Positions 581 to 17,958 of a DNA stretch of 24,260 bases are shown here, piece by piece (the stretch's first letter is position 1; every line of letters begins with the position of its first letter). The position numbers and the translations under genes are program-made. Under the pieces are notes generated by a model, which saw nothing but the letters and a program-made list of their open reading frames with translations, searched no databases and had not been told where the DNA came from. The stretch lies in the NCBI GenBank assembly GCA_012799845.1, contig JAAZKL010000164.1:1-24260 (forward strand). The letters run 5' to 3'. This DNA is from Clostridiaceae bacterium. GTDB lineage: Bacteria; Bacillota; Clostridia; Acetivibrionales; DTU013.

Positions 581-2816
581 AGCTTGGCGCGGTTGACTGC
601 ATACACAGGCCGATCTGCATGGATCTGCTGAAAGCCAGGGTCGATGTGCATGCAGCCTTGTTGTGCGCCCAGCGTGCCCTCGTACAGCAGCTTGACGAAA
701 AGTCGCATTCCCTGGACCTGATTTTCGAACAGGCCCCCATCGGTATAGCTGTTTCACAGGGTTGTGATTCGGATCCCTCTGCCGATGTCATTGTAAAGGT
801 CAACTCGACATTTGAGCAGATAACGGGAATGACCAGGGAAGAACTCATGAGCTCGGGATGGCCAAAGATCACGCATCCGGACGACCTGGAAGAAGACATG
901 GAGAATTTCAGGAAGCTCCGGGCGGGCGAGATCAGGATGTATTCGATGGATAAACGGTATATCAGGCCGGACGGTTCCATCGTCTGGGTGCATATGGTCG
1001 TAGCCCCGCTCGATCTGCCTAATGAGCGGCAATATAAGCATATCTGCCTGGTGCAGGACATCACTGCGCGCAAAGAGATGGAAAAAGCCCTGGATGAGAG
1101 TGAACGCAGCAAGTCGGTACTTCTTGCAAACCTGCCGGGTCTGGCGTACAGGTGCTTTACTGATGAGGAATGGACGATGCAGTAAGTTTCCGAGGGCTGC
1201 TACAAGCTTACGGGTTACCCGCCGGAGAGCCTGCTGTACAACAGGGACCTGTCCTATAATGACATAATCTCCCCTGAATACCGCGAAGCCCTGCGGGACG
1301 AATGGAAACGGATCCTCGCGGCAAGGCATCCGTTCAAATACGAGTACGAGATCATTACCGCCGCAGGCGAGAAAAAGTGGGTCCTTGAAATGGGGCAGGG
1401 CATATATGACGATGACGGGAAGGTTGAGGCGCTGGAAGGGATTGTTCTTGACATATCCGACCGGAAAGCGGCAGAGGGCACTCTGAAATACAACAATGAG
1501 CACGACAGGTGGACAGGGCTGCATAACCGCGAGTATCTCGTGTCTCTGCTCGAAAATGATATCAGGATGAAGAGGGACTCCAAAAAAGCGCTGATCGGCA
1601 TCAACCTGGATACTCTCCAGGTGAAAGCATCCAATTACGGGTTCCATTACAGCCAGAACCTGGTAAAAAAAGCGGCCGAGGCTCTCAGCCGGTACTGTAC
1701 AGACAAGCGCCTGCTGTGCCACGCACGTGAAAACCGCTTTGCATTTTATATATCCGATTACGACGACAGGAGCGAAATCGCTGAATTCGCCAATGCCATC
1801 GTGAAGACCTTAAGGTCGGTGTTCGCTACGGAAAGAACAGGCGGCGGGATCGGGATCCTTGAGATCGGGCATGGTGAAGACGTGACCGACGTCGAACTCC
1901 TGATGAGAAGGCTCCTGATAGCCTCCGAAAGGTATGTCGGCCTGTTTGAAAATGACTTTCAGGTCTGTTATTACGATGAAGAACTGGAAGATCTCGTCAA
2001 CCGTGAAAGGGACATCGTCGAGGCTCTCAGCGCGATCGCGTCAGGCAGCCGGACGAATGACGAACTGCTATTGCTGTACCAGCCGATCGTAGATCTTAAA
2101 AGTTATTCGGTGCAAAGCTTCGAAGTCCTGAGCAGACTGAGGTCGGAAAAGCTCGGCCCTGTGTCGCCCATGGAATTCATTCCGATTGCTGAAAAACAAA
2201 ACTCATCCTTCCGGTCGGCGAGATCGTGATCGTCAAAGCATTCCGGTTCCTCAACAGGCTTAGGGAGCTCGGGTACGAGGAGATCTGCATTTCAGTCAAT
2301 ATTTCGGTCATACAGCTGCTGGATCCCGATTTTGTGAACAGGCTGCTGGAACCGGCGGGCAATATGCATATCGACCCGGATCATGTCGTTATCGAGATCA
2401 CGGAGTCGGTCTTTGCTTCTGATTTCAATCACATCAACAGTATTATTGGTAAGTTGAAAAAGTCAGGGTTCCATATTGCCATAGACGACTTCGGCACCGG
2501 CTATTCTTCCCTGGCAAGGCAGAGGGAACTGCATGTCGATTGCATGAAGATAGACAAATATTTCATAGACAAACTGGATACGGACCTGGACAGGTCAATA
2601 ACCAGCGATATCATCTCAGTTGCGCATAAACTGGGACACTGTACTGTTGCCGAAGGGGTCGAGAAGGAAACCCAGCTTCAGTATCTTAAAGAGCACGGTT
2701 GTGATAAAGTGCAGGGGTTCCTGATCAGCAGGCCGATCACTGAAGAGGATGTCGTAAGGTTCCTGGAAAATGAAGAAAAAATGTCCTGGAATGCAGTACT
2801 CATGGGCACCAGGTAG
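541..2816 (+). pseudogene. Disrupted REC(tail)-PAS-PAS-GGDEF(degenerate)-EAL c-di-GMP phosphodiesterase-type gene
   Basis: Frame 1 gives S-x11-LKLGAVDCIHRP...LLKARV (receiver C-terminal half), then PAS (THPDD, RYIRPDG, QDITARK). TAA at 1183-1185 lies inside WTMQ*VSEGC and the frame continues to the ORF at 1390. The GGDEF position reads ARENR. EAL motifs are EVLSR, DDFGTGYSS, KIDK, AEGVE and QGFL. Adding one A to the A5 run at 2192-2196 restores AEKTKLILPVGEIV and joins ORFs 1390-2229 and 2226-2816. Confidence 0.85.
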
Positions 2817-3090: not shown

Positions 3091-4827
3091 ATGAAAAAAG
3101 CAAAATTACTCGCGCTGCTATTGGTTGTTGTTATGGTATTAAGCGTCATAACAGCATGCACAAGGTCGGGCCAGGGCGGAGATACACCGGCTGATCCGTG
3201 CAGCAGCACCACCACACCTTCTACTTCTTCGGGAGACGGTGACAAACCCGCCGATTCAGGCAGCAAGCCTGTTCAGCCGATCACGTTCACGATGTTCCAG
3301 GCTGACCCGGGCGAAGCTCCTCCGGCAGACAACAAGATCGTCAAGTATATCCGGGAAAAGACAGGTGTCACCATCGACATCGAATACCTCGTAGGTGACA
3401 TGGAACAGAAAGTCGGTATCATGATCGCCGGCGGCGATTATCCCGACCTCATCGGACCCGGCCAGGCTCGTGGTCAGTTCCTGAATGCAGGTGCATTCGT
3501 GGCACTCGACGATCTGCTTCCCAAATACCCGAACCTCTGGAAGCACTATGAGCCCTTCCTGGACGTTCTTAAGAGCGTTTCATCGGATGGCAAGATCTAC
3601 ATCATGGACATCTGGAGCCGTAACTACTGGCTGAACGACGGAGAAGACACAGCATATCAGGCAGGTTACAACGGCCCTGCTTTCTGGACACAGAAAGACG
3701 TGCTTGCATGGGACAATTATTCATATCCGGCTTCGCTGGATGGATACTTCGATCTGCTTGAGCGCTACTTCAAGGCTCATCCGACGATCGACGGCCAGCC
3801 TACACTGGGATTTGAAGTACATTCACAGGATTGGCGTTCGTTCTGTCTGAAGAATGCGCCGCAGCACCTGATCGGCGGACGTAACGAAGGTGACGTCGTT
3901 GTCCATCAGGATACACTTAAAGTTGAGATCTACCAGAACAAAGATTATGCAAAGACCTACTATAAGAAACTCAATGAAATGTACAAGAAAGGCCTGATCC
4001 ATCCTGAGACATTCTCAAGGAACTATGACGATTATCTGGCAACCATATCCACCGGCCGTGTTATGGCAATGTTCGACCAGCAGTGGAACTTTGGAAGCGC
4101 AGAAAACGTTCTGATTTCCGAAGGCAAGTATGAACGCACATACGTACCCCTCGGTGTCAGCCTTGACGGAACACCCGCTTCTTACAACAGGTATAAGGAT
4201 GCAGGTATCGTAGGCGGTAACGGAATGGGCATCAGCGTGAAGTGCAAAGACGTCGAGCGTGCTCTTGAGTTCCTTGATTTCATGCTCAACGAAGATATCC
4301 AGAAGCTCTGCTACTGGGGTATCGAAGGCGAAGACTACTATGTTGAAAACGGACGTTACAGACGTACTCAGGAACAGAGAGACAACTTCAACAATCCTGA
4401 CTGGGTAAAGGCTAACTCCGGTATCAACTTCGCCAACCTGTTCCCGAAGATGCAGGGTCGTTACTCCGACGGAAATGCTTGCGGTGCAGGCAACCAGCCG
4501 GAAGAGTTGCTGGAAGGCATGTCCGATTATGACAAGGCATTCCTTGGCAAGTATGGATTCAGCGACAAGTCGGAATTCCTGCCTCTGGCAGAATATGCAG
4601 GATATCCTGAAGTATGGTCCATCTTCTCCACCATGGATGAAGACAACCCGACAAAAGCTATATTCAACGAGATCACAGACCTCCAGAACCGTTATCTGCC
4701 GGGCGTGATCATGTCTGACAACTTCGATGCAGCATGGGCTGAATATGCAGCAAGATATAACAGTGTCGACAGTGCGACACTTGAAGCAGAGATCGAGAAA
4801 GAGATCAAGGCACGTTACAAAAAGTAA
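3091..4827 (+). CDS. Carbohydrate/oligosaccharide ABC transporter extracellular solute-binding lipoprotein (LplA-like)
   Basis: RBS AAAGGGG. Basic N-terminus and hydrophobic stretch, lipobox ITA-C, Ser/Thr/Gly/Asp-rich linker, KTGVTIDIEY and IAGGDYPDL motifs. Lies directly upstream of two sugar permeases. Confidence 0.92.
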   Translation: MKKAKLLALLLVVVMVLSVITACTRSGQGGDTPADPCSSTTTPSTSSGDGDKPADSGSKPVQPITFTMFQADPGEAPPADNKIVKYIREKTGVTIDIEYLVGDMEQKVGIMIAGGDYPDLIGPGQARGQFLNAGAFVALDDLLPKYPNLWKHYEPFLDVLKSVSSDGKIYIMDIWSRNYWLNDGEDTAYQAGYNGPAFWTQKDVLAWDNYSYPASLDGYFDLLERYFKAHPTIDGQPTLGFEVHSQDWRSFCLKNAPQHLIGGRNEGDVVVHQDTLKVEIYQNKDYAKTYYKKLNEMYKKGLIHPETFSRNYDDYLATISTGRVMAMFDQQWNFGSAENVLISEGKYERTYVPLGVSLDGTPASYNRYKDAGIVGGNGMGISVKCKDVERALEFLDFMLNEDIQKLCYWGIEGEDYYVENGRYRRTQEQRDNFNNPDWVKANSGINFANLFPKMQGRYSDGNACGAGNQPEELLEGMSDYDKAFLGKYGFSDKSEFLPLAEYAGYPEVWSIFSTMDEDNPTKAIFNEITDLQNRYLPGVIMSDNFDAAWAEYAARYNSVDSATLEAEIEKEIKARYKK

Positions 4828-7155: not shown

Positions 7156-10100
7156 ATGAGTTTTATTATTTCAGTACATTTTAAAAACAGTTTTTATGAA
7201 ATTTTTACACCAGGCATAAACAATAGAAAAATTTCCATAGAAATTCCTTCAGACATATCCGGGTTCGCATCCGATTTTCCGCTCTCTTTCGAGGTCTGGA
7301 ACAACAACTGGAGCATATTGGAGAATGAAGCCGTCGTGTTCCTGAAAGGCAACGATTCAAAGAAAACCGTTCCTCTTGAGTCGGGCCTGACGATAAGCTG
7401 CGAACTCCGCCCGACACGTGAGAGATTCTCCCTCATAGTCGAAAAAAGTTATAAAGGATACTCGGATTTCGACAAATACGTATTGAAACAGGGGAAGATC
7501 ACTATAGGCAGCGCTGACGGGAATATGGTCCGGTACAACACCCGCAATCTTGTTTCCGGACATCATGCGGTCCTGGATGTAGGTCCGGACGGCATCTGTA
7601 CGCTTACCGACTCCAGCCGGAACGGCACGTTCGTAAACGGGAAAAGGATATCGGGAAGCTGCAGGCTGAACTACGGTGATGTGGTCTACATAATCGGACT
7701 GAAACTGATCTGTCTGGGGAACGTTATCGCGGTCAACCGTCCATTCGAGCCAGTCAGGCTGACAGGACTGGAATCGTTCGTGCGGGATGCGGAAAGCGGA
7801 CCTCAGCCGGATGCTGATGCCGATGACGGGTATTATCAGCGTTCTCCCCGCCAGATCGAGCCCCTGGACGATGAGACGATCGAGATAGAGGCGCCGCCGA
7901 ACCCGGCCAGGAGCCGCAGGCAGCCGCTGATGTTCACCGTTGGACCGTCCCTGACGATGGTCATCCCAATGGCGGCCGGCGTGCTGTTCACCATATGGAG
8001 CCAGCAGCAATCAAACAGCGGAATGGCCAGCCCGTTTATGTTCATGGGCATCGTAACTTCCGTTACAGCAGCTGTCATAGGAGTATTCTGGGCGCTGACA
8101 AATTACAGGTACAACATGAAGATGGAGCGCGAAGATGAGGCGCGGCGCCGTGACATGTACGGCAAATACCTGGAAAAGATCCGCCGGCTGCTGATTCGTA
8201 AGCACATGTTCAATAAAGAAGTGCTTGATAGGAAATATCCTGAAACGAGAGAGTGCCTGCGCTTTGTTATGGAAAAGAGCCGAAGAGTGTGGGAACGCAA
8301 TGTCAATCATCCTGATTTCCTGACTGTCCGGCTGGGACAGGGACAGATGCCTTCTCCCAATATCATCAGTATTCCTAAGGAAAGGTTCTCTCTCGTGGAC
8401 GACAACCTTGCAGAAGAACCGGCCAACATTAAAAATGAATACGATATACTGAAGGACGTTCCCGTATGCATTTCTCTGACCGAACACAACCTGGTCGGTG
8501 TGATCGGCGAACCGGCTGCAGTATACGGGTATATTCCACAGATCATGGCTGCTCAGATCGCGACCTGCCATTCATATACGGATGTACGCATGGCCTTCAT
8601 CTATAACGAAAAGCACGCCCGCAGCTTTGAATTCGCCAAATGGCTGCCTCACACGTGGAACGAGGACGGCAGTTTCCGCATGATAGCGTGCGACAAAAAC
8701 GGGGTAGGCGAACTGTTCTACAACCTGTCCTCCATGCTGAGGACCCGGCTTGAGGAAAAGGAGGATCCCTCGGAAGCTGTGCGTTCTCTTCCTCACTATG
8801 TTATATTTATCGCGGATCCTTCACTGGTCGAAAATGAGGCTGTCATGAAATATATATCCGCACCGACGGCACAGATGGGAATTACGACAGTACTGCTTTA
8901 TGAACAGATCGACAGGCTGCCGAACAACTGCACCGTGATCATCCAGAGCGATGAGGATTACCGCGGATATTACAGCCTGGACAGCAGTTTTGACGGTTTC
9001 AGCAATGTCATGTTCGATGGCGTGTCCATCGAAGAGCTTGAGGAATACGCCAGGGAAATGTCGAGCATCCGTGTGCGTGAGACTCAGTCCGCGGGCGCCA
9101 TACCGCAGATGCTCACTTTTCTTGATATGTACAAAACTTCGGTGGTCACTGACATCGATATTGAAAGGCGCTGGCTGGAGAACCGCACATATGAGAGCAT
9201 GAGAGCCATGATCGGCTACCGCAGCGCCAATTCTCCGCTGTATCTCGACATACACGAAAAATATCACGGCCCGCACGGCCTTGTCGCCGGCACCACCGGT
9301 TCGGGCAAGTCCGAGACGCTTCAGACCTACATACTGTCGATGGCGCTCAGCTACCATCCTTATGAGGTCTCCTTCATACTGATCGACTATAAGGGCGGCG
9401 GCATGGCAGGGAGCTTTGAGAAGCTGCCTCACGTCGCGGGCATCATCACGAACCTTGGAGGCAACCAGACGAACCGGGCGCTCGCTTCCATCAACAGCGA
9501 AATCAAGCGGCGCCAGACTGTTTTCAACGAATACAAGCTGAAGCATATCGACGGCTATATCGAGCTTTTCCGTGCCGGGAAAGTGTCACAGCCAATGCCT
9601 CACTTACTTATAATCGCCGATGAATTCGCGGAACTGAAAAAGGAACAGCCGGAATTCGTACGTGAACTCGTCAGTGCGTCCCGTGTCGGGCGCAGCCTCG
9701 GAGTCCATCTGATACTGGCGACACAGAAACCTTCCGGCGTGGTGGACGAAGAGATCTGGGGCAACTCCAAATTCCGGCTGTGTCTGCGTGTCCAGGACAA
9801 GCAGGATTCCAACGAGATGATAAGGCGTCCTGACGCGGCGTACATAACAAATGCAGGACGCGGATACTTCCAGGTAGGCAATGACGAGATATTCGAGCAG
9901 TTCCAGTCAGGCTGGAGCGGTGCGAGATATGAGCCGGATATCCCGTACAGCGATGCCGGACAGAGCGACGCAAAAATGATCAACCTCTGGGGCAAGCCCT
10001 GTGTGGTCGGCAGCACGAAGAAGGTATCGAAGCAGGAAGACGGGAAAAAGACGACCCAACTTGAGGCAGTCGTGCAGCATATATGCAGCATTGCCGAGAG

Positions 10101-11808
10101 ACAGGGGATCAGACCTGTCGACAATATCTGGCTTCCGCCGCTGCCCAAAACGCTGTCGCTGCCGCATTTGCAGGAGTATGGAGATGTTGCCTGGAGAGAC
10201 GGCATCTGGCGGGCACCTTCCGGAGAACTGGATCCTGTTGTCGGCCTGATCGATGATCCTGTTAACCAACGCCAGGCAGCACTGTCCGTCAACCTGCTCA
10301 TGGAGGGGCACCTGCTTGTGACAGGTTCGGGTTCGGGAGGAAAGACGACTTTCCTGCAAACGCTTTTATATTCACTTGTCACGACATATTCGCCCAAACA
10401 GCTCAACATATACATAGCCGACTTCGGAAGCCGGACGATGGGAGTATTCTCCTCGCTGCCGCATGTAGGCGGCGTCGTGTATGACAGCGAGACCGACAAG
10501 GCGGACAAGCTGGTCGCGATGCTTCTGAAGGAACTGAGCCGGCGCAGGCATATGTTCTCGGAAAAAGGAATCGGCTCCGTAAGAGAATATGTCCGCCTCT
10601 ATGACGATGTGCCGTTCATAGTTTTTGCCATCGACAACTATGCCGCGTGGAATGAAAGCTGTCCAAAGCAGGAGGACAATCTCATCCTGCTGTCGCGTGA
10701 AGCTGCAAGCTACGGCATATACCTGGTCATCACCTGCTCCAACTCAGGGGACATCCGGGGCAGGATCCGGCAAAACATCAGTTACGGCATCGGCCTGCAG
10801 CTTGCTGACCGGTTTGAGTACGAAGAAGCCATAGGCATGAAGACGGAAATCGTTGCTGAGGACCATACTCCGGGGCGCGGGCTCGTTTGCTGCCCGAAGC
10901 CACTTGAGTTCCAGACAGCGCTGTGCATGGACGTCAACGACCCGGTCACCCTCAATATGAAGCTGAAGGAACAGTTCGAGCAAATGGCGGCCGCATGGAG
11001 TGGAGAGGCAGCTACGGTCATACCGCAGGTGCCGTCCGACCTGTCCCTGGACAATCTCCTGTCGCTGCCCGAGTTCAATGAGGCTGTAAGTTCGCACAGG
11101 TACATCCCGTTCGGGTATGAGCTGTCAATGGCGCAGATTTCAAGCGTCGATCTGGCGAGGACCTTCTGCTATACCATAAGCGGCACGTCGAGAAGCGGAA
11201 AAACCAATCTGCTCAAGGTATACATGAGACTGGCTAAAACGCGGGACGGCAAGATATATGTGTTTGACGGCCCTAACCGCGAACTGGAAGCATATTCACG
11301 CGAAATAAGTGCAGACGGCTACATGACGAAATCCGACGAACTGTTCGATTACATGCAGACGGTCATGGTCCCGGAATTTGCGCGCAGGAACAGGGCAAAA
11401 GCTGAATTTGTAAGGAGCGGGAGCAGGAACGTTGATGAGTATATCGCCTCCGAACAGAAAATCTTCCTGTTCATAAATGACATGAGCGCGTTCTGCGAGG
11501 CGGTTTACGAAAGTGAACGCGATATGAAAGGCTTTATGGAGCAAATGATCGTCCGGGGCGACAATCATATGATCTACCTGTTTGCGTGTGTATCAGTGGC
11601 TGATATGACCGGAGAATACAATTCCAAACGCCTGATGCGCGGATTTGTGGGCTGGAAGGAAGGCATTCACCTGGGAGGCAGGCTGGAAGACCAGAAAGTG
11701 TTCGACTTCGATGTGCCGATACTGCAACGCGGGAAAAAGCTGCCTGCCGGCTATGGGCATATATCTGCTGACGGAGCAACATTGCGTGTCGTTACAGCTA
11801 TTGCATAA
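7156..11808 (+). CDS. essC: Type VII secretion FtsK/SpoIIIE ATPase, EssC/YukB type (N-terminal FHA region, two TM helices, three P-loop domains)
   Basis: FHA motif (ITIGS...VSGHHA...SRNGTFVNG). Two hydrophobic helices (PSLTMVIPMAAGVLF; FMFMGIVTSVTAAVIGVFW). Walker A motifs GTTGSGKS, GSGSGGKT, GTSRSGKT. HGPHGLVAG, IDYKGG, IIADEFAEL and LILATQKP motifs. Adjacent EsaB and WXG100 genes. Confidence 0.95.
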   Translation: MSFIISVHFKNSFYEIFTPGINNRKISIEIPSDISGFASDFPLSFEVWNNNWSILENEAVVFLKGNDSKKTVPLESGLTISCELRPTRERFSLIVEKSYKGYSDFDKYVLKQGKITIGSADGNMVRYNTRNLVSGHHAVLDVGPDGICTLTDSSRNGTFVNGKRISGSCRLNYGDVVYIIGLKLICLGNVIAVNRPFEPVRLTGLESFVRDAESGPQPDADADDGYYQRSPRQIEPLDDETIEIEAPPNPARSRRQPLMFTVGPSLTMVIPMAAGVLFTIWSQQQSNSGMASPFMFMGIVTSVTAAVIGVFWALTNYRYNMKMEREDEARRRDMYGKYLEKIRRLLIRKHMFNKEVLDRKYPETRECLRFVMEKSRRVWERNVNHPDFLTVRLGQGQMPSPNIISIPKERFSLVDDNLAEEPANIKNEYDILKDVPVCISLTEHNLVGVIGEPAAVYGYIPQIMAAQIATCHSYTDVRMAFIYNEKHARSFEFAKWLPHTWNEDGSFRMIACDKNGVGELFYNLSSMLRTRLEEKEDPSEAVRSLPHYVIFIADPSLVENEAVMKYISAPTAQMGITTVLLYEQIDRLPNNCTVIIQSDEDYRGYYSLDSSFDGFSNVMFDGVSIEELEEYAREMSSIRVRETQSAGAIPQMLTFLDMYKTSVVTDIDIERRWLENRTYESMRAMIGYRSANSPLYLDIHEKYHGPHGLVAGTTGSGKSETLQTYILSMALSYHPYEVSFILIDYKGGGMAGSFEKLPHVAGIITNLGGNQTNRALASINSEIKRRQTVFNEYKLKHIDGYIELFRAGKVSQPMPHLLIIADEFAELKKEQPEFVRELVSASRVGRSLGVHLILATQKPSGVVDEEIWGNSKFRLCLRVQDKQDSNEMIRRPDAAYITNAGRGYFQVGNDEIFEQFQSGWSGARYEPDIPYSDAGQSDAKMINLWGKPCVVGSTKKVSKQEDGKKTTQLEAVVQHICSIAERQGIRPVDNIWLPPLPKTLSLPHLQEYGDVAWRDGIWRAPSGELDPVVGLIDDPVNQRQAALSVNLLMEGHLLVTGSGSGGKTTFLQTLLYSLVTTYSPKQLNIYIADFGSRTMGVFSSLPHVGGVVYDSETDKADKLVAMLLKELSRRRHMFSEKGIGSVREYVRLYDDVPFIVFAIDNYAAWNESCPKQEDNLILLSREAASYGIYLVITCSNSGDIRGRIRQNISYGIGLQLADRFEYEEAIGMKTEIVAEDHTPGRGLVCCPKPLEFQTALCMDVNDPVTLNMKLKEQFEQMAAAWSGEAATVIPQVPSDLSLDNLLSLPEFNEAVSSHRYIPFGYELSMAQISSVDLARTFCYTISGTSRSGKTNLLKVYMRLAKTRDGKIYVFDGPNRELEAYSREISADGYMTKSDELFDYMQTVMVPEFARRNRAKAEFVRSGSRNVDEYIASEQKIFLFINDMSAFCEAVYESERDMKGFMEQMIVRGDNHMIYLFACVSVADMTGEYNSKRLMRGFVGWKEGIHLGGRLEDQKVFDFDVPILQRGKKLPAGYGHISADGATLRVVTAIA

Positions 11809-11861: not shown

Positions 11862-12599
11862 ATGCTAAGCATAATCGTGTTGGACACAATGCATGACGAA
11901 GAACCCAATATATCGGATATACTTGAGGAGGCGTATTCAAAACGCGACCTGCCTGTCAAACGGCTTGCCGTTTTCAGGGAACCTGCGCCCCTGTTTGGAT
12001 TTGCGGAGGAGCAGTCGGACAGGTTCAATGTTTTCATAGCATCATTTTCCTGGCTCCGGGATGAGTACATGGAACTGGCGCAAAATCTCAGGAGGCGCAG
12101 GAAAAACCTGTTTATAGTATTCGTGGTCGGCAGGAATGTGGACATATCATGCTGCGTGCGGCCGTCAGTGAGGCCCTCCGGCATACTGTTCATCCCCCTG
12201 GAGAAGCAGCGGATCTATCAAACGCTCAGCGAGATCTACGTTGAACTGCTGAGATCGGCCGAACGCGGGGAACAGCCTGTGTTCACCATCAGGTGCGGCG
12301 GCGAATACTACACCATCGATACTGAAGATATATTCTTCTTTGAGGCGCAGGGCAAAAAAATCGCTGCCAAAACACGCAGCCAGGAGATCGCTTTTTATTC
12401 GAACTTCGAAGCTGTGCTGGAGCAGCTTCCCGAATGGTTTGTGAGGTGCCATAAGGGGTTTGTGGTGAATACGAAGCAGATCGTCCAGGCAAGTTTTACT
12501 GAAATGACGCTGACATTGAAGGACAGGTCGGTGGTCCCGATATCGCGGACATACCGTGACGAGATCAGGACGATCGTCGAGTCGAAAGGGGCTGTATGA
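11862..12599 (+). CDS. LytTR-family DNA-binding regulator with atypical (pseudo-)receiver domain
   Basis: The C-terminal LytTR signature is IFFFEAQGKK...FVRCHKGFVVN...VPISRTY. The N-terminal about 120 aa has receiver-like spacing but lacks the phospho-Asp (FIASF), Thr/Ser (VFVVG) and Lys-Pro (LFIP) residues. Confidence 0.85.
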   Translation: MLSIIVLDTMHDEEPNISDILEEAYSKRDLPVKRLAVFREPAPLFGFAEEQSDRFNVFIASFSWLRDEYMELAQNLRRRRKNLFIVFVVGRNVDISCCVRPSVRPSGILFIPLEKQRIYQTLSEIYVELLRSAERGEQPVFTIRCGGEYYTIDTEDIFFFEAQGKKIAAKTRSQEIAFYSNFEAVLEQLPEWFVRCHKGFVVNTKQIVQASFTEMTLTLKDRSVVPISRTYRDEIRTIVESKGAV

Positions 12600-13090
12600 T
12601 GGAGGGACTGAAAGCATCATTCATACTTACAAGGCCTGAAATGCTCTTCCTGCTGAACAGTGCTGCCGGCACTACTCCCTCTGGTCCGATGGAGCATTTA
12701 CTGAGCAAGTGCTTCTCCAGCGCAACAGTGTCGGAGGAAACTGTCGGAGGGCTCGCGGACAAGGGACTGATCACGAAAACACCGGATAAGGTCTCGCTGG
12801 AGCCTGTGATCGGGCTGCTGGCGCGTTCTGCGATGACAGCCGGGAAGCTGTGGATCGTCAACGAAGGCGCCGAAGATAAGATGATGATACTGAGATCCGA
12901 TGAAATGTACCTGCACATAAAGAGATATCCGCTGATCGCTGACTCATGGCGCATCGCGCCGTACAGGACAGCGTCCGGGCTGCATGACGAGTTCGGGGGC
13001 ATCGCTGTCAGGAATGTAAGGATCATTGGTCAGCAGGGTGAAGAAGCTTTTATTGAATCACCGAACGATTTTGCATGGCTGGAGGTTTGA
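12596..13090 (+). CDS. Hypothetical protein in the T7SS operon, possibly EspG/EsaE-like chaperone
   Basis: ATGA overlap with the LytTR stop, followed closely by esaB. The N-terminal pattern LTRPEMLFLL...GLADKGLI...LEPVIGLLAR resembles EspG-family N-termini by eye only. Confidence 0.6.
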   Translation: MMEGLKASFILTRPEMLFLLNSAAGTTPSGPMEHLLSKCFSSATVSEETVGGLADKGLITKTPDKVSLEPVIGLLARSAMTAGKLWIVNEGAEDKMMILRSDEMYLHIKRYPLIADSWRIAPYRTASGLHDEFGGIAVRNVRIIGQQGEEAFIESPNDFAWLEV

Positions 13091-13095
13091 TTTGA

Positions 13096-13350
13096 ATGGC
13101 AAAAATCTATATCGATGTGAGCACGCCGGGTAACGGCAAGGTATATGAGTTCCGTCTCGACAACTCCATGACGGTCGGCCAGGTCAAGGCCAGGATGATC
13201 GAGGAAATAACCGAATTCGAGAATGGGAACATTACTCTCGATCCTGAAAAGATCATACTCTGCAACCAGGATACCCGGACAATGCTGCCGGAATCCCAGA
13301 CACTGAGGCAGTCGGGAGTCAGGAGCGGGCACAGGCTGCTGCTTGTGTGA
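13096..13350 (+). CDS. esaB: EsaB/YukD-family ubiquitin-like T7SS protein
   Basis: 84 aa with a beta-grasp pattern (IYIDVS...VYEFRLDNSMTVGQVK...TLRQSGVRSGHRLLLV), RBS GGAGG, located in the essC operon. Confidence 0.85.
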   Translation: MAKIYIDVSTPGNGKVYEFRLDNSMTVGQVKARMIEEITEFENGNITLDPEKIILCNQDTRTMLPESQTLRQSGVRSGHRLLLV

Positions 13351-13455
13351 CATATGCCCGTCCACCCATGCCGGTGAAATGCCGCTCTGACATTCTGGCC
13401 AATTTTTTTGAGTACTGCAATTCATTCCAAAAAACATGCAGGTTGTCAGAATCTA

Positions 13456-13484
13456 TTGAAATGGTATGAGAAAGCAAGTAAGCT
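13456..13484 (+). promoter_or_regulatory. Possible internal promoter for the WXG100/effector genes
   Basis: TTGAAA (13456-13461), 17 nt, TAAGCT (13479-13484) in a 165-nt intergenic gap ahead of RBS GGAGGTG. Confidence 0.45.
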
Positions 13485-13515: not shown

Positions 13516-13827
13516 ATGCCGGATTTCAGGTCAACGGATGTGGACAGCAGACAGATCGAAAATACAGCCGCCAGTCTGGACGAAGACATTAAGGCGTTGT
13601 CATCTGTATGCACTTTCATCCGGAACGATGTGATGGCGAACCTGGACCCTTACTGGGAGGGACAGGCAAAGCAAAGTTTCGAGCAGCGGTTCACCCGGTT
13701 TGCAGAGGCCCTGGTAAAGCTCGTTGACGAATACAGGGTGCTCAACGACCTGCTGAAGAGAGCCGGTGATACGTATGGCAAGGCAGACGATTCGGTAAGG
13801 AACACAATTGCGAAGCTGCCAAGGTAG
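13516..13827 (+). CDS. WXG100 family protein 1
   Basis: 103 aa helical protein with central W-E-G and C-terminal YGKAD (YxxxD/E). RBS GGAGGTG. Confidence 0.9.
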   Translation: MPDFRSTDVDSRQIENTAASLDEDIKALSSVCTFIRNDVMANLDPYWEGQAKQSFEQRFTRFAEALVKLVDEYRVLNDLLKRAGDTYGKADDSVRNTIAKLPR

Positions 13828-13838
13828 GGGGTGTTGGT

Positions 13839-14222
13839 ATGGCCGGGAAAAAGAATATGAAAATGCCGGATCCTGCTGTGGGAGCTGCATTGATTACTTT
13901 GCGCCAGGATTTTATAAAATTTGACCCGGAAAAGATCATGGAGGTTTCGACCGGGCTTGAACAGCAGCACAAGAAATTCACCCAGGCTGCCGCAACGATA
14001 AAGAGGCGGGCTGAAAGCCTGATGGCAAGCTGGAAGAGCGACAGCGCCGATTTATACATGAAGAAGATCGGGGAACTGGATGCACAGAGCAATGAAATTG
14101 CCGGTGAATTGCTCTCATTAAGCCAGGACCTGGCCAAAGCATCCGGGATCTACAAGACCGGCGAATCGGAAGCGAAGAAGAAAGCAGAAGCGTTGCCTAC
14201 TGAAGGCGTGTTTCTCGTATAG
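13839..14222 (+). CDS. WXG100-like protein 2 (WKS variant)
   Basis: IKFDPEKI...SWKSDSA...YKTGE...LPTEGVF. Paralogous to 15033-15353. The start codon is uncertain (13839 or 13857). Confidence 0.85.
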   Translation: MAGKKNMKMPDPAVGAALITLRQDFIKFDPEKIMEVSTGLEQQHKKFTQAAATIKRRAESLMASWKSDSADLYMKKIGELDAQSNEIAGELLSLSQDLAKASGIYKTGESEAKKKAEALPTEGVFLV

Positions 14223-14243
14223 TGAGGGACGGTGAGTGCGAAT

Positions 14244-14642
14244 ATGGCGATAATGAATTTCAACTATAACCAGGCAATCAGGCAGGCGGACCAAATCGAT
14301 TCCGCGGCAGGCGAATTGCTGAACACGGCGAACAGGCAGCTCCAGACGACGCTGGAATCCGTTGCCGCCTGCTGGAATGGCGATGCCTCGGCGCAGTTCA
14401 TCAGCTACTGCAGGACTGTCCAGGAAGATATCCGAAGAGAGGCGGGAAAACTCCAGGACCTGGCCCGCCGGATAAGGCAGGTTGCCAGGATCATCAGGGA
14501 AGCTGAAGAAAGGGCAAGAGAACTTCAGCGGCAGAGGGAAGCCGCAGCCGCTGCAGCAGCTGCTGCCGCCGCAGAGCAAAAAGGGAACTTTTCATCGGGA
14601 GGCGGCAGCTTCAGCGGTGGCGGCGGCGGTGGCTCATTCTGA
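14244..14642 (+). CDS. WXG100 family protein 3 with poly-Ala and Gly-rich C-terminal extension
   Basis: Central W-N-G, tail A11-EQKGNFSSGGGSFSGGGGGGSF. ATG 14244 is preferred over GTG 14232 on RBS spacing (GGTGAG at 14231-14236). Confidence 0.85.
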   Translation: MAIMNFNYNQAIRQADQIDSAAGELLNTANRQLQTTLESVAACWNGDASAQFISYCRTVQEDIRREAGKLQDLARRIRQVARIIREAEERARELQRQREAAAAAAAAAAAEQKGNFSSGGGSFSGGGGGGSF

Positions 14643-14707
14643 CAGGAGTTTGATATCATCTCATATTTCATATATCAGAATCCATATTTCTTAAGGAGGG
14701 AATTTCA

Positions 14708-15010
14708 ATGGCAGGAACTGAAGTTTTAACCGGGCGATTGATCGATGTCGCCAAAAACCTTGAGGACATAATCGGACGTTACAATACGACTGTCAACAAG
14801 GTTTACCAGATCGGAGGAGAAATCGATGCAATGTGGGATGGTCCGGCCAGCAATAAATTCGTGTCCATCCTCGGCAACGACAGGGAACGCTTCAATGCTC
14901 TTGCGAAAATGCTCAATGCATATGTCGAGACGCTCCGCAGGGACGCAGCCATCTATGCGAAAGCTGAGAGCGACGCTCTCGATATCCTGAACACGAACAA
15001 AATCCGATAA
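14708..15010 (+). CDS. WXG100 family protein 4
   Basis: 100 aa with central W-D-G, C-terminal YAKAE and RBS AAGGAGG. Confidence 0.9.
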   Translation: MAGTEVLTGRLIDVAKNLEDIIGRYNTTVNKVYQIGGEIDAMWDGPASNKFVSILGNDRERFNALAKMLNAYVETLRRDAAIYAKAESDALDILNTNKIR

Positions 15011-15032
15011 TCTATGAAAGGAGTCGTACATA

Positions 15033-15353
15033 ATGGATATCATATTAAAAGTACAGCCTGATGTTCTTCTCTCCAAATCCGGAGAGCTATCCAACGAAAA
15101 GAACACCATCATCAGCCTCATGGACCAGGCAAAAAGCGAGATCAACTCCCTGACCGGCGTTTGGAAGAGCGAGGCTTCGGATGAATTCCAGGCCAGGTTC
15201 AAACAGGTATACGACGACATAGACAATATGCTCGCTATCGTTTCCGAGTATATCAGTGACCTCAACGAGGTCGCCAATGTCTATACCACAGCGGAAAAAG
15301 CTGCAAAGAGCGCAGCGGAAGGACTTCCGACCGACGGTGTTTTCAGAGTTTGA
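15033..15353 (+). CDS. WXG100-like protein 5 (WKS variant)
   Basis: ILKVQPDVL...VWKSEAS...YTTAE...LPTDGVF, with RBS AAAGGAG. Confidence 0.9.
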   Translation: MDIILKVQPDVLLSKSGELSNEKNTIISLMDQAKSEINSLTGVWKSEASDEFQARFKQVYDDIDNMLAIVSEYISDLNEVANVYTTAEKAAKSAAEGLPTDGVFRV

Positions 15354-17640: not shown

Positions 17641-17958
17641 ATGTTTAATGGTCTCTTACCGATCGGTTCAGTAGTCTTGCTGAAAAACAGCACCAAAAGG
17701 GTTATGATCATTGGCTTCTGCCAAAAAGAGATCAATGATAATGAAGAAGCGAAAATTTGGGATTATGCTGGCTGCCTGTATCCAGAAGGCTACCTGGGAC
17801 CCAATCAGACATTCCTGTTCAATGGCGACCAGATAGAACGCATTTTTGCCATTGGGTACCAGGATGAAGAGCAGTTTGAGTTCAAGAAAAAGGCCGACTC
17901 TGTGATCGAGCAACTGAGGAAGAAGTCTGCCGGTCAGCAGGAAGAACAGCCACAGTAA
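17641..17958 (+). CDS. DUF4176 family protein
   Basis: LLPIGSVVLLK...VMIIG...WDYAGCLYPEG...FLFNGDQIERIFAIGYQDEE is the recognisable DUF4176 pattern. AAGGAGG supports ATG 17641. Confidence 0.9.
   Translation: MFNGLLPIGSVVLLKNSTKRVMIIGFCQKEINDNEEAKIWDYAGCLYPEGYLGPNQTFLFNGDQIERIFAIGYQDEEQFEFKKKADSVIEQLRKKSAGQQEEQPQ

Follow-up and report, generated by a model that had tools for sequence, protein, structure and literature searches.

Genes and features of the locus

The window, i.e., the whole stretch of 24,260 nucleotides that was analyzed and that makes up the complete contig, contains a type VII secretion (T7SS) locus with the following genes and protein domains:

7156..11808, + strand: EssC/TsiC-like ATPase of 1550 aa, with one FHA domain and FtsK/SpoIIIE ATPase domains, heading the operon of the regulator
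11862-12599, + strand: regulator ORF of 245 aa, with a REC-fold N-terminal half and a LytTR domain
11862..12281, + strand: pseudo-receiver (aspartate-less REC fold), regulator residues 1-140, assigned by an AF2 model, Foldseek, a match to the ComE REC domain, and alignments
12303..12575, + strand: LytTR DNA-binding domain, regulator residues 148-238 (Pfam PF04397)
12596..13090, + strand: EspG-like (TsiG-like) protein of 164 aa, with a start overlapping the regulator stop, assigned by AF2, VIA-align, and Foldseek
13096..13350, + strand: YukD/EsaB-like ubiquitin-fold protein of 84 aa (Pfam YukD, E 3.9e-08), kept in related loci
13516..15353, + strand: five WXG100-family genes with Pfam WXG100 matches in all five, the presumed regulated operon

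The EssC-like protein matches FtsK_SpoIIIE (E 4e-55) and FHA (E 5e-11) in Pfam. The match of one WXG100 gene (13839-14222) lies below Pfam's own cut-off, at 23.6 vs. 27.3 bits. The WXG100 operon probably continues through position 17958 with genes for proteins of 143, 427, and 145 aa and then a DUF4176 gene (Pfam, E 5e-30). The order of genes is EssC, the regulator, the 164-aa protein, the YukD-like protein, five WXG100 proteins, the proteins of 143, 427, and 145 aa, and DUF4176; the YukD-like gene is the last one before the candidate regulated promoter. The first-pass annotation had placed the regulator gene between essC and esaB: it does lie downstream of essC, but the 164-aa ORF intervenes before esaB/yukD. 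The translational overlap reported there is present, with the regulator stop codon sharing the ATGA at 12596-12599 with the start of the 164-aa ORF, and so are all four motif strings from which a degenerate receiver had been read, located in the 245-aa translation at residues 6-9 (VLDT), 58-62 (FIASF), 86-90 (VFVVG), and 109-112 (LFIP).

The LytTR domain is matched by Pfam with an E-value of 4e-19 and 69.1 bits, vs. a curated cut-off of 22.6. [quoted passage not shown]

The order EssC, regulator, EspG-like protein, YukD, WXG100 is the same around homologues of 36-62% identity in five unrelated assemblies, and it recurs around two further homologues in species-representative genomes. EssC is encoded at 26 of the 29 distinct related loci; at these 26 it lies upstream of the regulator and is 33-69% identical to the ATPase of the window, and 23 of them also contain YukD, WXG100, or DUF4176 genes. 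Among the 24 loci of species-representative genomes, EssC is directly upstream of the LytTR gene in 21, with YukD, WXG100, or DUF4176 downstream in 18 of the latter. The sources are Lachnospiraceae, Oscillospiraceae, Ruminococcus, Coprococcus, Agathobacter, Eisenbergiella, and Anaerovoracaceae. Members of the close family are uncommon: in a sample of 400 further genomes of the phylum, one is matched by the N-terminal profile. The proposed tie of the orthologues to this EssC type is borne out by these counts and, to judge from gene context, the regulator gene is a conserved part of an EssC-type locus and not a passenger.

The receiver-like half of the regulator and its lost catalytic residues

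Neither Pfam nor NCBIfam yields a receiver match for the N-terminal half of the regulator: residues 1-140 are unmatched, with no Response_reg (PF00072) match in Pfam even at E 0.1. In the same genome, three further LytTR regulators give Response_reg matches with E-values of 4e-15 to 6e-25; hence, the missing match is a trait of this regulator and not of the genome. The initial description of a LytTR protein with an atypical receiver agrees with the outcome for the two profiles, as LytTR is matched and Response_reg is not.

The AF2 model of the regulator, with 61 homologues in the alignment, has a pLDDT of 90.4. Its secondary-structure elements follow in the order b1-a1-b2-a2-b3-a3-b4-(loop)-b5-a5, and then comes the all-beta LytTR domain; helix alpha4 is absent, and a long conserved loop, CVRPSVRPSG, takes its place before b5. 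The best Foldseek match to this model is full-length ComE (E 1e-13); the N-terminal half is also similar to dozens of REC domains (TM 0.7-0.8). A profile made from the N-terminal half only has the ComE REC domain as its best PDB sequence match (E 0.004). Searched against 1.84 billion representative proteins, the N-terminal profile finds only 73, nearly all of them 230-245 aa long, and the weakest of these matches include canonical REC-LytTR receivers with the usual Asp and Lys-Pro. As judged by the modeled fold and by remote homology, the N-terminal half is a receiver.

The catalytic sites were mapped by MAFFT alignment, for which canonical REC-LytTR proteins and this genome's three canonical LytTR regulators served as references:

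acidic pair: D8-T9, only the first acidic residue being kept
phospho-acceptor Asp at the end of beta3: S61 (12042-12044)
Thr/Ser after beta4: V89
Lys after beta5: I111
Pro following the Lys site: P112, kept

Among the 61 close homologues, the acceptor position is occupied by Ser in 54 and by Asp or Glu in none; Lys or Arg is found in 0/61 at the Lys position, an acidic residue in 0/61 at the second acidic position, and Thr in 2/61 at the Thr position; and P112 is invariant. If ComE is aligned without gaps by HMMER, its Asp falls two residues before S61. The MAFFT alignments were preferred, and the two-residue shift in register is immaterial, because no residue between D52 and D67 is acidic. 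The formal alignment does not recover Asp, Thr, or Lys, and the reduced acidic pocket and the loss of these three residues, first noted by eye, are thereby confirmed. The domain is an aspartate-less receiver (ALR) by the definition of this subfamily, a REC fold in which the phospho-Asp is replaced (PMC4395418). Strongly conserved motifs of the pseudo-receiver are MLSxLxLDT, LPIKRL, NVFIASF, and the CVRPSVRPSG loop, and the domain is evidently not decaying freely.

The sister proteins of Lachnospiraceae type retain Asp at the acceptor position, as well as Lys or Arg and Pro after b5; they have neither the second acidic residue nor Thr, and their b3-a3 loop is shortened. This sister clade is large (476 protein clusters), and no linked histidine kinase was found in it with a home-made HATPase profile. 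The two clades look like parts of one T7SS-dedicated family, in which decay has gone further in the clade of the window.

There are no matches to HATPase_c, HATPase_c_5, or His_kinase on the window. Elsewhere in the genome, HATPase_c is matched 22 times, and the canonical LytTR regulators on two other contigs (C411 and C300) do adjoin genes with histidine-kinase domains. The home-made HATPase profile HMM was also run on the loci of the homologues: no histidine kinase adjoins the T7SS-linked homologues at any locus, and each of the three homologues that have no T7SS linkage adjoins one. The earlier observation that no histidine kinase is nearby thus holds for the contig and for all T7SS-linked homologues. 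As read from the alignments, Asp phosphorylation of the receiver is impossible, which excludes control by a histidine kinase through this residue; the regulator is kinase-independent, as had been proposed, in the sense that it has lost the acceptor and has no linked histidine kinase. If the protein were an ordinary orphan response regulator that receives its phosphate from acetyl phosphate or an unlinked histidine kinase, the REC fold and LytTR output of AgrA and ComE would be expected, and the 22 HATPase_c matches would offer candidate partners; nevertheless, Asp and Glu are absent near the end of beta3, and Lys, Thr, and the second acidic residue are missing too, a pattern seen also in the 61 close homologues, so that the sequence itself contradicts this reading, which keeps hardly any probability.

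Phosphorylation might instead take place on a conserved serine, either S61 or S102/S106 in the RPSxRPSG loop, with a Hanks-type Ser/Thr kinase in control. S61, S102, and S106 are kept in 54, 55, and 51 of the 61 homologues, respectively, and Ser at the acceptor position is a known ALR substitution, speculated to be phosphorylated (PMC4395418); ComE, itself a LytTR regulator, is reported to be phosphorylated by StkP (PMC6010298). An orthologous kinase of ~820 aa adjoins the locus in three relatives (L007, L008, and L011), and kinase-domain genes lie within 10 kb at 9 of the 29 distinct loci. Most loci, however, have no nearby kinase; a full-length orthologue of the ~820-aa kinase was not found in this genome (91% complete), which shows generic kinase-domain matches on other contigs only; and the ~820-aa kinase could act on the FHA domain of EssC instead. 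We therefore regard serine phosphorylation as an unlikely mode of control.

Candidate operator and predicted chaperone contact

The gap of 165 bp between yukD and the first WXG100 gene holds a block that is aligned without gaps in all eight close loci (8/8). The features of this gap are:

13416..13446, + strand: candidate operator of two 10-nt direct repeats with an 11-nt spacer and a 21-bp period, the half-sites being TGCAATTCAT (13416-13425) and TGCAGGTTGT (13437-13446)
13456..13484, + strand: promoter-like elements read from the sequence, with the -35 hexamer TTGAAA (13456-13461), a 17-nt spacer, and the -10 hexamer TAAGCT (13479-13484)

The two half-sites agree in the window at only 6 of 10 positions, and the -10 hexamer is weak; both hexamers lie at a constant distance from the repeats in 8/8 close loci. 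A leave-one-out PWM gives 42 bits at the site of the window (13420-13452); no other site exceeds 13 bits in the window or 19 bits in the 2.5-Mb genome as a whole, in which the element is unique by this measure. Upstream of essC in the window, no second operator scores above 13 bits; one relative (L034) has a copy of the element there.

Across 21 loci, 27 sites carry the conserved element, including loci in which the identity of the regulator drops to 25-30%, and the consensus of these sites is a direct repeat, GGTCATTCAT-N11-GGTCATTTGT. A shift by 21 nt makes 6.3 of 12 bases identical, vs. 1.7-4.9 at other shifts (27 sites); a repeat period of 22 bp, which was the first reading from 8 sites, is not supported, the 27 sites clearly giving 21. 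In distant loci of Lachnospiraceae type, the same element is located just past yukD, and extra copies in distant loci often precede further WXG100 or effector modules. Published LytTR sites consist of two repeats of 9-11 nt with a spacer of 11-13 nt, e.g., GGCATTTCAT for YpdB (PMC4847170). The 10-N11-10 layout of the window fits this description, and the YpdB half-site is similar in sequence too (PMC4847170).

From the layout and the co-conservation, the regulator most likely binds the repeats at 13416-13446 and activates, rather than represses, the WXG100 substrate operon. It would be made from the essC operon, together with EssC, and would sit as a dimer on the two direct repeats abutting the -35 element of the WXG100 promoter; once bound there, it would activate the WXG100 substrate genes. 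Alternatively, the protein might not be a transcription factor at all, but a structural or adaptor subunit of the secretion system, with the LytTR fold co-opted for chaperone binding. The position of its gene among core genes (essC, yukD) and a predicted chaperone contact that uses the LytTR domain (see below) speak for such a role; against it, the basic DNA-contact residues are kept as described above, and the LytTR-type direct repeat is co-conserved with the regulator in 21 loci, and we consider it very improbable.

For the 164-aa protein, no family match was obtained with Pfam or NCBIfam, and a word-based homologue search yielded only three matches; its relatives were gathered by gene position in the related loci. 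The AF2 model (pLDDT 88.3, pTM 0.83) is globular and has no long hydrophobic helix. VIA-align gives Z-scores of 10.3 for EspG3, 9.7 for EspG1, and 8.4 for EspG5, with 5.5 for the next fold, and the best 16 Foldseek matches are all EspG. The protein is shorter by ~100 residues than the matched EspG chains (260-300 residues), and hhalign shows it to be homologous (93%, E 3e-7) to the protein of 211-243 aa that occupies this position in the sister clade. In 25 of the 26 distinct T7SS-linked loci, the EspG-like gene is the next one after the regulator gene; in one clade (L008, with its short duplicate L009) it is absent altogether.

The complex prediction for the regulator and the 164-aa protein has a score of 0.67, and the best of three controls has 0.00. 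Of 80 solved complexes, 58 attain this mark, as do 2 of 110 mismatched pairs; these counts hold only roughly, since custom alignments were used. The agreement of contacts in the complex runs is at least 79%, and the pLDDT of the partner is at least 80. We know of no solved complex of EspG with a LytTR protein; hence, it seems unlikely that the prediction reproduces a memorized structure. On the regulator side, the predicted interface is formed by residues 143, 145, 150, 161, 166, 170, 172-179, and 221-225 (LytTR domain); on the partner side, by residues 3-11, 55-58, 111, 113-115, and 119, which include the invariant I10, K56, and Y111. The modeled contact lies off the strongly conserved pseudo-receiver (S61, RPSxRPSG loop) and so gives this domain no function, which speaks against the model. 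In the alignment with AgrA, regulator residues 167 and 177 correspond to L171 and E181, which are close to DNA in AgrA and whose alanine variants lose DNA binding (PMC4227749). By this mapping, the predicted interface may be DNA-proximal, so that the chaperone and DNA may be competitors, or the chaperone may enlarge the surface that contacts DNA; in the model, it would dock by beta-strand addition onto the LytTR domain, beside the DNA-proximal face.

In light of these models, the regulator most likely takes its input from the EspG-like chaperone, whose gene follows and overlaps the regulator gene. That a partner protein provides the input had been suggested in the first-pass annotation, and this part is plausible given the EspG-like fold, the almost constant position as the next gene, and the controlled complex prediction; the place of action is another one, with the contact on the LytTR domain and not on the degenerate receiver. 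Likewise, the modeling of the complex with the 164-aa protein, which had been proposed at the time, supports binding, but does not place the receiver at the interface. One tentative form of such an input would be a partner switch, in which the chaperone pairs with one of two partners, WXG100-type cargo or the regulator's DNA-binding domain, and thus couples type VII secretion to transcription of the substrates. Because the chaperone would bind one or the other, the amount of free chaperone would report cargo export. We hold this switch to be possible, though short of probable.

The regulator could also be a constitutive activator that receives no signal, the pseudo-receiver serving only for dimerization and control being exerted via the level at which the essC operon yields the regulator. 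Constitutive DNA binding is described for many aspartate-less regulators (PMC4395418), and this reading goes along with a loss of all catalytic residues; in addition, the operator copy upstream of essC in some relatives (L034, site at 4006) would give simple autoregulation. It leaves aside that the EspG-like gene is tightly kept beside the regulator and that the complex prediction passed, and the surface motifs of the pseudo-receiver are conserved more strongly than a plain dimerization module needs; we find it rather unlikely. With these alternatives weighed, the explanation that we favor, and consider fairly probable as a whole, is that of a LytTR-family transcription factor with a decayed aspartate-less receiver, forming a dedicated part of a T7SSi-like locus, acting on the candidate operator as an activator, and taking its input from the chaperone.

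To our knowledge, the first description of T7SS variants that have no EssA, EssB, and EsaA dates from 2024, and we know of nothing on their control. The regulator described here has no classical phosphorylation switch and belongs to a system common in gut Clostridia; the candidate operator, with its two 10-nt repeats, would define a regulon across many genomes; and the predicted contact of chaperone and regulator could explain how the synthesis of substrates is matched to secretion. If this contact is real, the principle of a chaperone as the signal, known from flagella and type III systems, extends to type VII secretion; if the partner switch is real as well, type VII secretion would have its own equivalent of FliT-FlhDC or IpgC-MxiE, one that is widespread among gut Lachnospiraceae and related Clostridia. 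If the contact is not real, the regulator still shows, in a clear-cut case, a decayed receiver that has been retained on a LytTR protein as a scaffold.

Comparison with known systems

AgrA and ComE have the same two-domain REC-LytTR fold, ComE being the best structural match and the LytTR domain of AgrA reaching TM 0.89, and their operators, in the manner of the candidate operator of the window, consist of two direct repeats ~21 bp apart next to the -35 element. They differ from the regulator of the window in that the latter has no phospho-acceptor Asp, Lys, Thr, or cognate kinase, and in that its alpha4 is replaced by the conserved RPSxRPSG loop.

Regulators coupled to export chaperones are known from other secretion systems: FliT-FlhDC, IpgC-MxiE, SicA-InvF, and ExsC-ExsD-ExsA. 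As in these, a secretion chaperone is found here beside a dedicated transcription factor, which it is predicted to bind; unlike in these, the proteins belong to other families, the secretion system is a different one, and the link to the chaperone is a prediction. The regulators of HdrRM and BrsRM reportedly have no receiver-like domain, and their partner is said to be a membrane-bound inhibitor, whereas the regulator of the window has a REC-fold domain and its neighbor is of a soluble globular EspG fold. In both of these LytTR Regulatory Systems, the LytTR regulator is controlled by an adjacent protein, not by a kinase (PMC6193735).

Aspartate-less receivers account for a few percent of REC domains, with Ser as a common replacement (PMC4395418). 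The regulators that carry them, e.g., RitR, resemble the one described here in having a REC fold without Asp, and Ser is a common substitution among them (PMC4395418, PMC5965902). The characterized ones have OmpR-type or other outputs, and the terms "LytTR" and "LytR" are absent from the main text of the survey (PMC4395418), whereas the regulator of the window has a LytTR output and has lost four of the five catalytic residues.

The closest likeness by components is to the T7SSi of Vallitalea (Garrett, Higginson and Palmer, 2024), which comprises the YukD-like TsiB, the FHA-EssC protein TsiC, the EspG-like TsiG, TsiM, and TsiN (PMC11217815). TsiN is termed a "LytR-like transcriptional regulator" and suggested to regulate the secretion genes; T7SSi is reported from Vallitalea only, and TsiM is a P-loop NTPase with one C-terminal transmembrane helix (PMC11217815). 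TsiN, a LytR-like and CheY-like protein, likewise belongs to a locus with genes for an FHA-EssC, a YukD-like, and an EspG-like protein, a likeness based on the descriptions of the components, since no Vallitalea sequence is among the matches of the homologue searches. The account of TsiN is one of domain annotation alone and mentions no missing Asp, operator, or chaperone contact (PMC11217815). T7SSi has TsiM, whereas no TsiM-like gene is found among the scanned ORFs of the locus in the window. The regulator fits the TsiN type, with an aspartate-less receiver on a LytTR output.

The first-pass annotation had seen in such control a new mode of T7SS feedback, which cannot be upheld in that form: secretion-dependent transcriptional feedback is known in mycobacterial ESX-1, via WhiB6 and EspM (PMC6343904, PMC7002343), and the LytR-like TsiN has been published (PMC11217815). 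A switch between the chaperone and the LytTR regulator would therefore be a new mechanism, not a new concept.

Clades of regulator homologues

Among the related loci carrying regulator homologues, the EspG-like gene is missing in one clade only, that of L008 (10001-10984) and L009; because of this absence, yukD directly follows the regulator gene. The acceptor position of the regulator in this clade is Tyr. The Lachnospiraceae-type sister clade, represented by loci L017–L034 and L036 (e.g., L033:9788-10504), is large, amounting to 476 protein clusters. Its proteins retain Asp at the acceptor site and, after beta5, Pro preceded by either Lys or Arg, but neither Thr nor the second residue of the acidic pair. 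No histidine kinase gene adjoins the regulator in the sister-clade loci.

Ser/Thr kinase genes near related loci

Orthologous Hanks-type kinases of about 820 aa, with NHL-like repeats and full-length identity of 37–41%, adjoin the T7SS locus in three relatives; no orthologue is present in this genome.
L007:7521-9980, Hanks-type kinase
L008:15342-17807, Hanks-type kinase
L011:7202-9691, Hanks-type kinase

In two Lachnospiraceae loci, the regulator is followed by the EspG-like gene and then by a gene with a Ser/Thr kinase domain; neither YukD nor WXG100 matches were found at these loci.
L020:11126-11878, in a locus with this gene order
L024:11271-11897, in a locus with this gene order

A split GGDEF-EAL gene

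A GGDEF-EAL gene in the window (1390-2816) is broken into ORF 1390-2229 and ORF 2226-2816, which overlap. The break falls within the EAL domain, between positions 58 and 68 of the profile, and points to a pseudogene, a frameshift, or an error in the assembly.

Direct-repeat sites in related loci

The candidate operator, scoring 44 bits with the weight matrix, is also present in Candidatus Contubernalis alkaliaceticus (CP054699).
L006:11549-11581, candidate operator

The 9 kb downstream of it yielded no WXG100 gene; zinc-ribbon (DZR), TPR, beta-propeller, and FHA proteins are encoded there instead. Additional copies of the direct-repeat element occur within related loci, at L034:4006, L011:5505, L022:15622, L031:19435, L028:12885, and L033:12873. 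The L034 copy lies upstream of essC, and others precede additional WXG100 or effector modules; these extra copies suggest a multi-promoter regulon, with autoregulation in some species.
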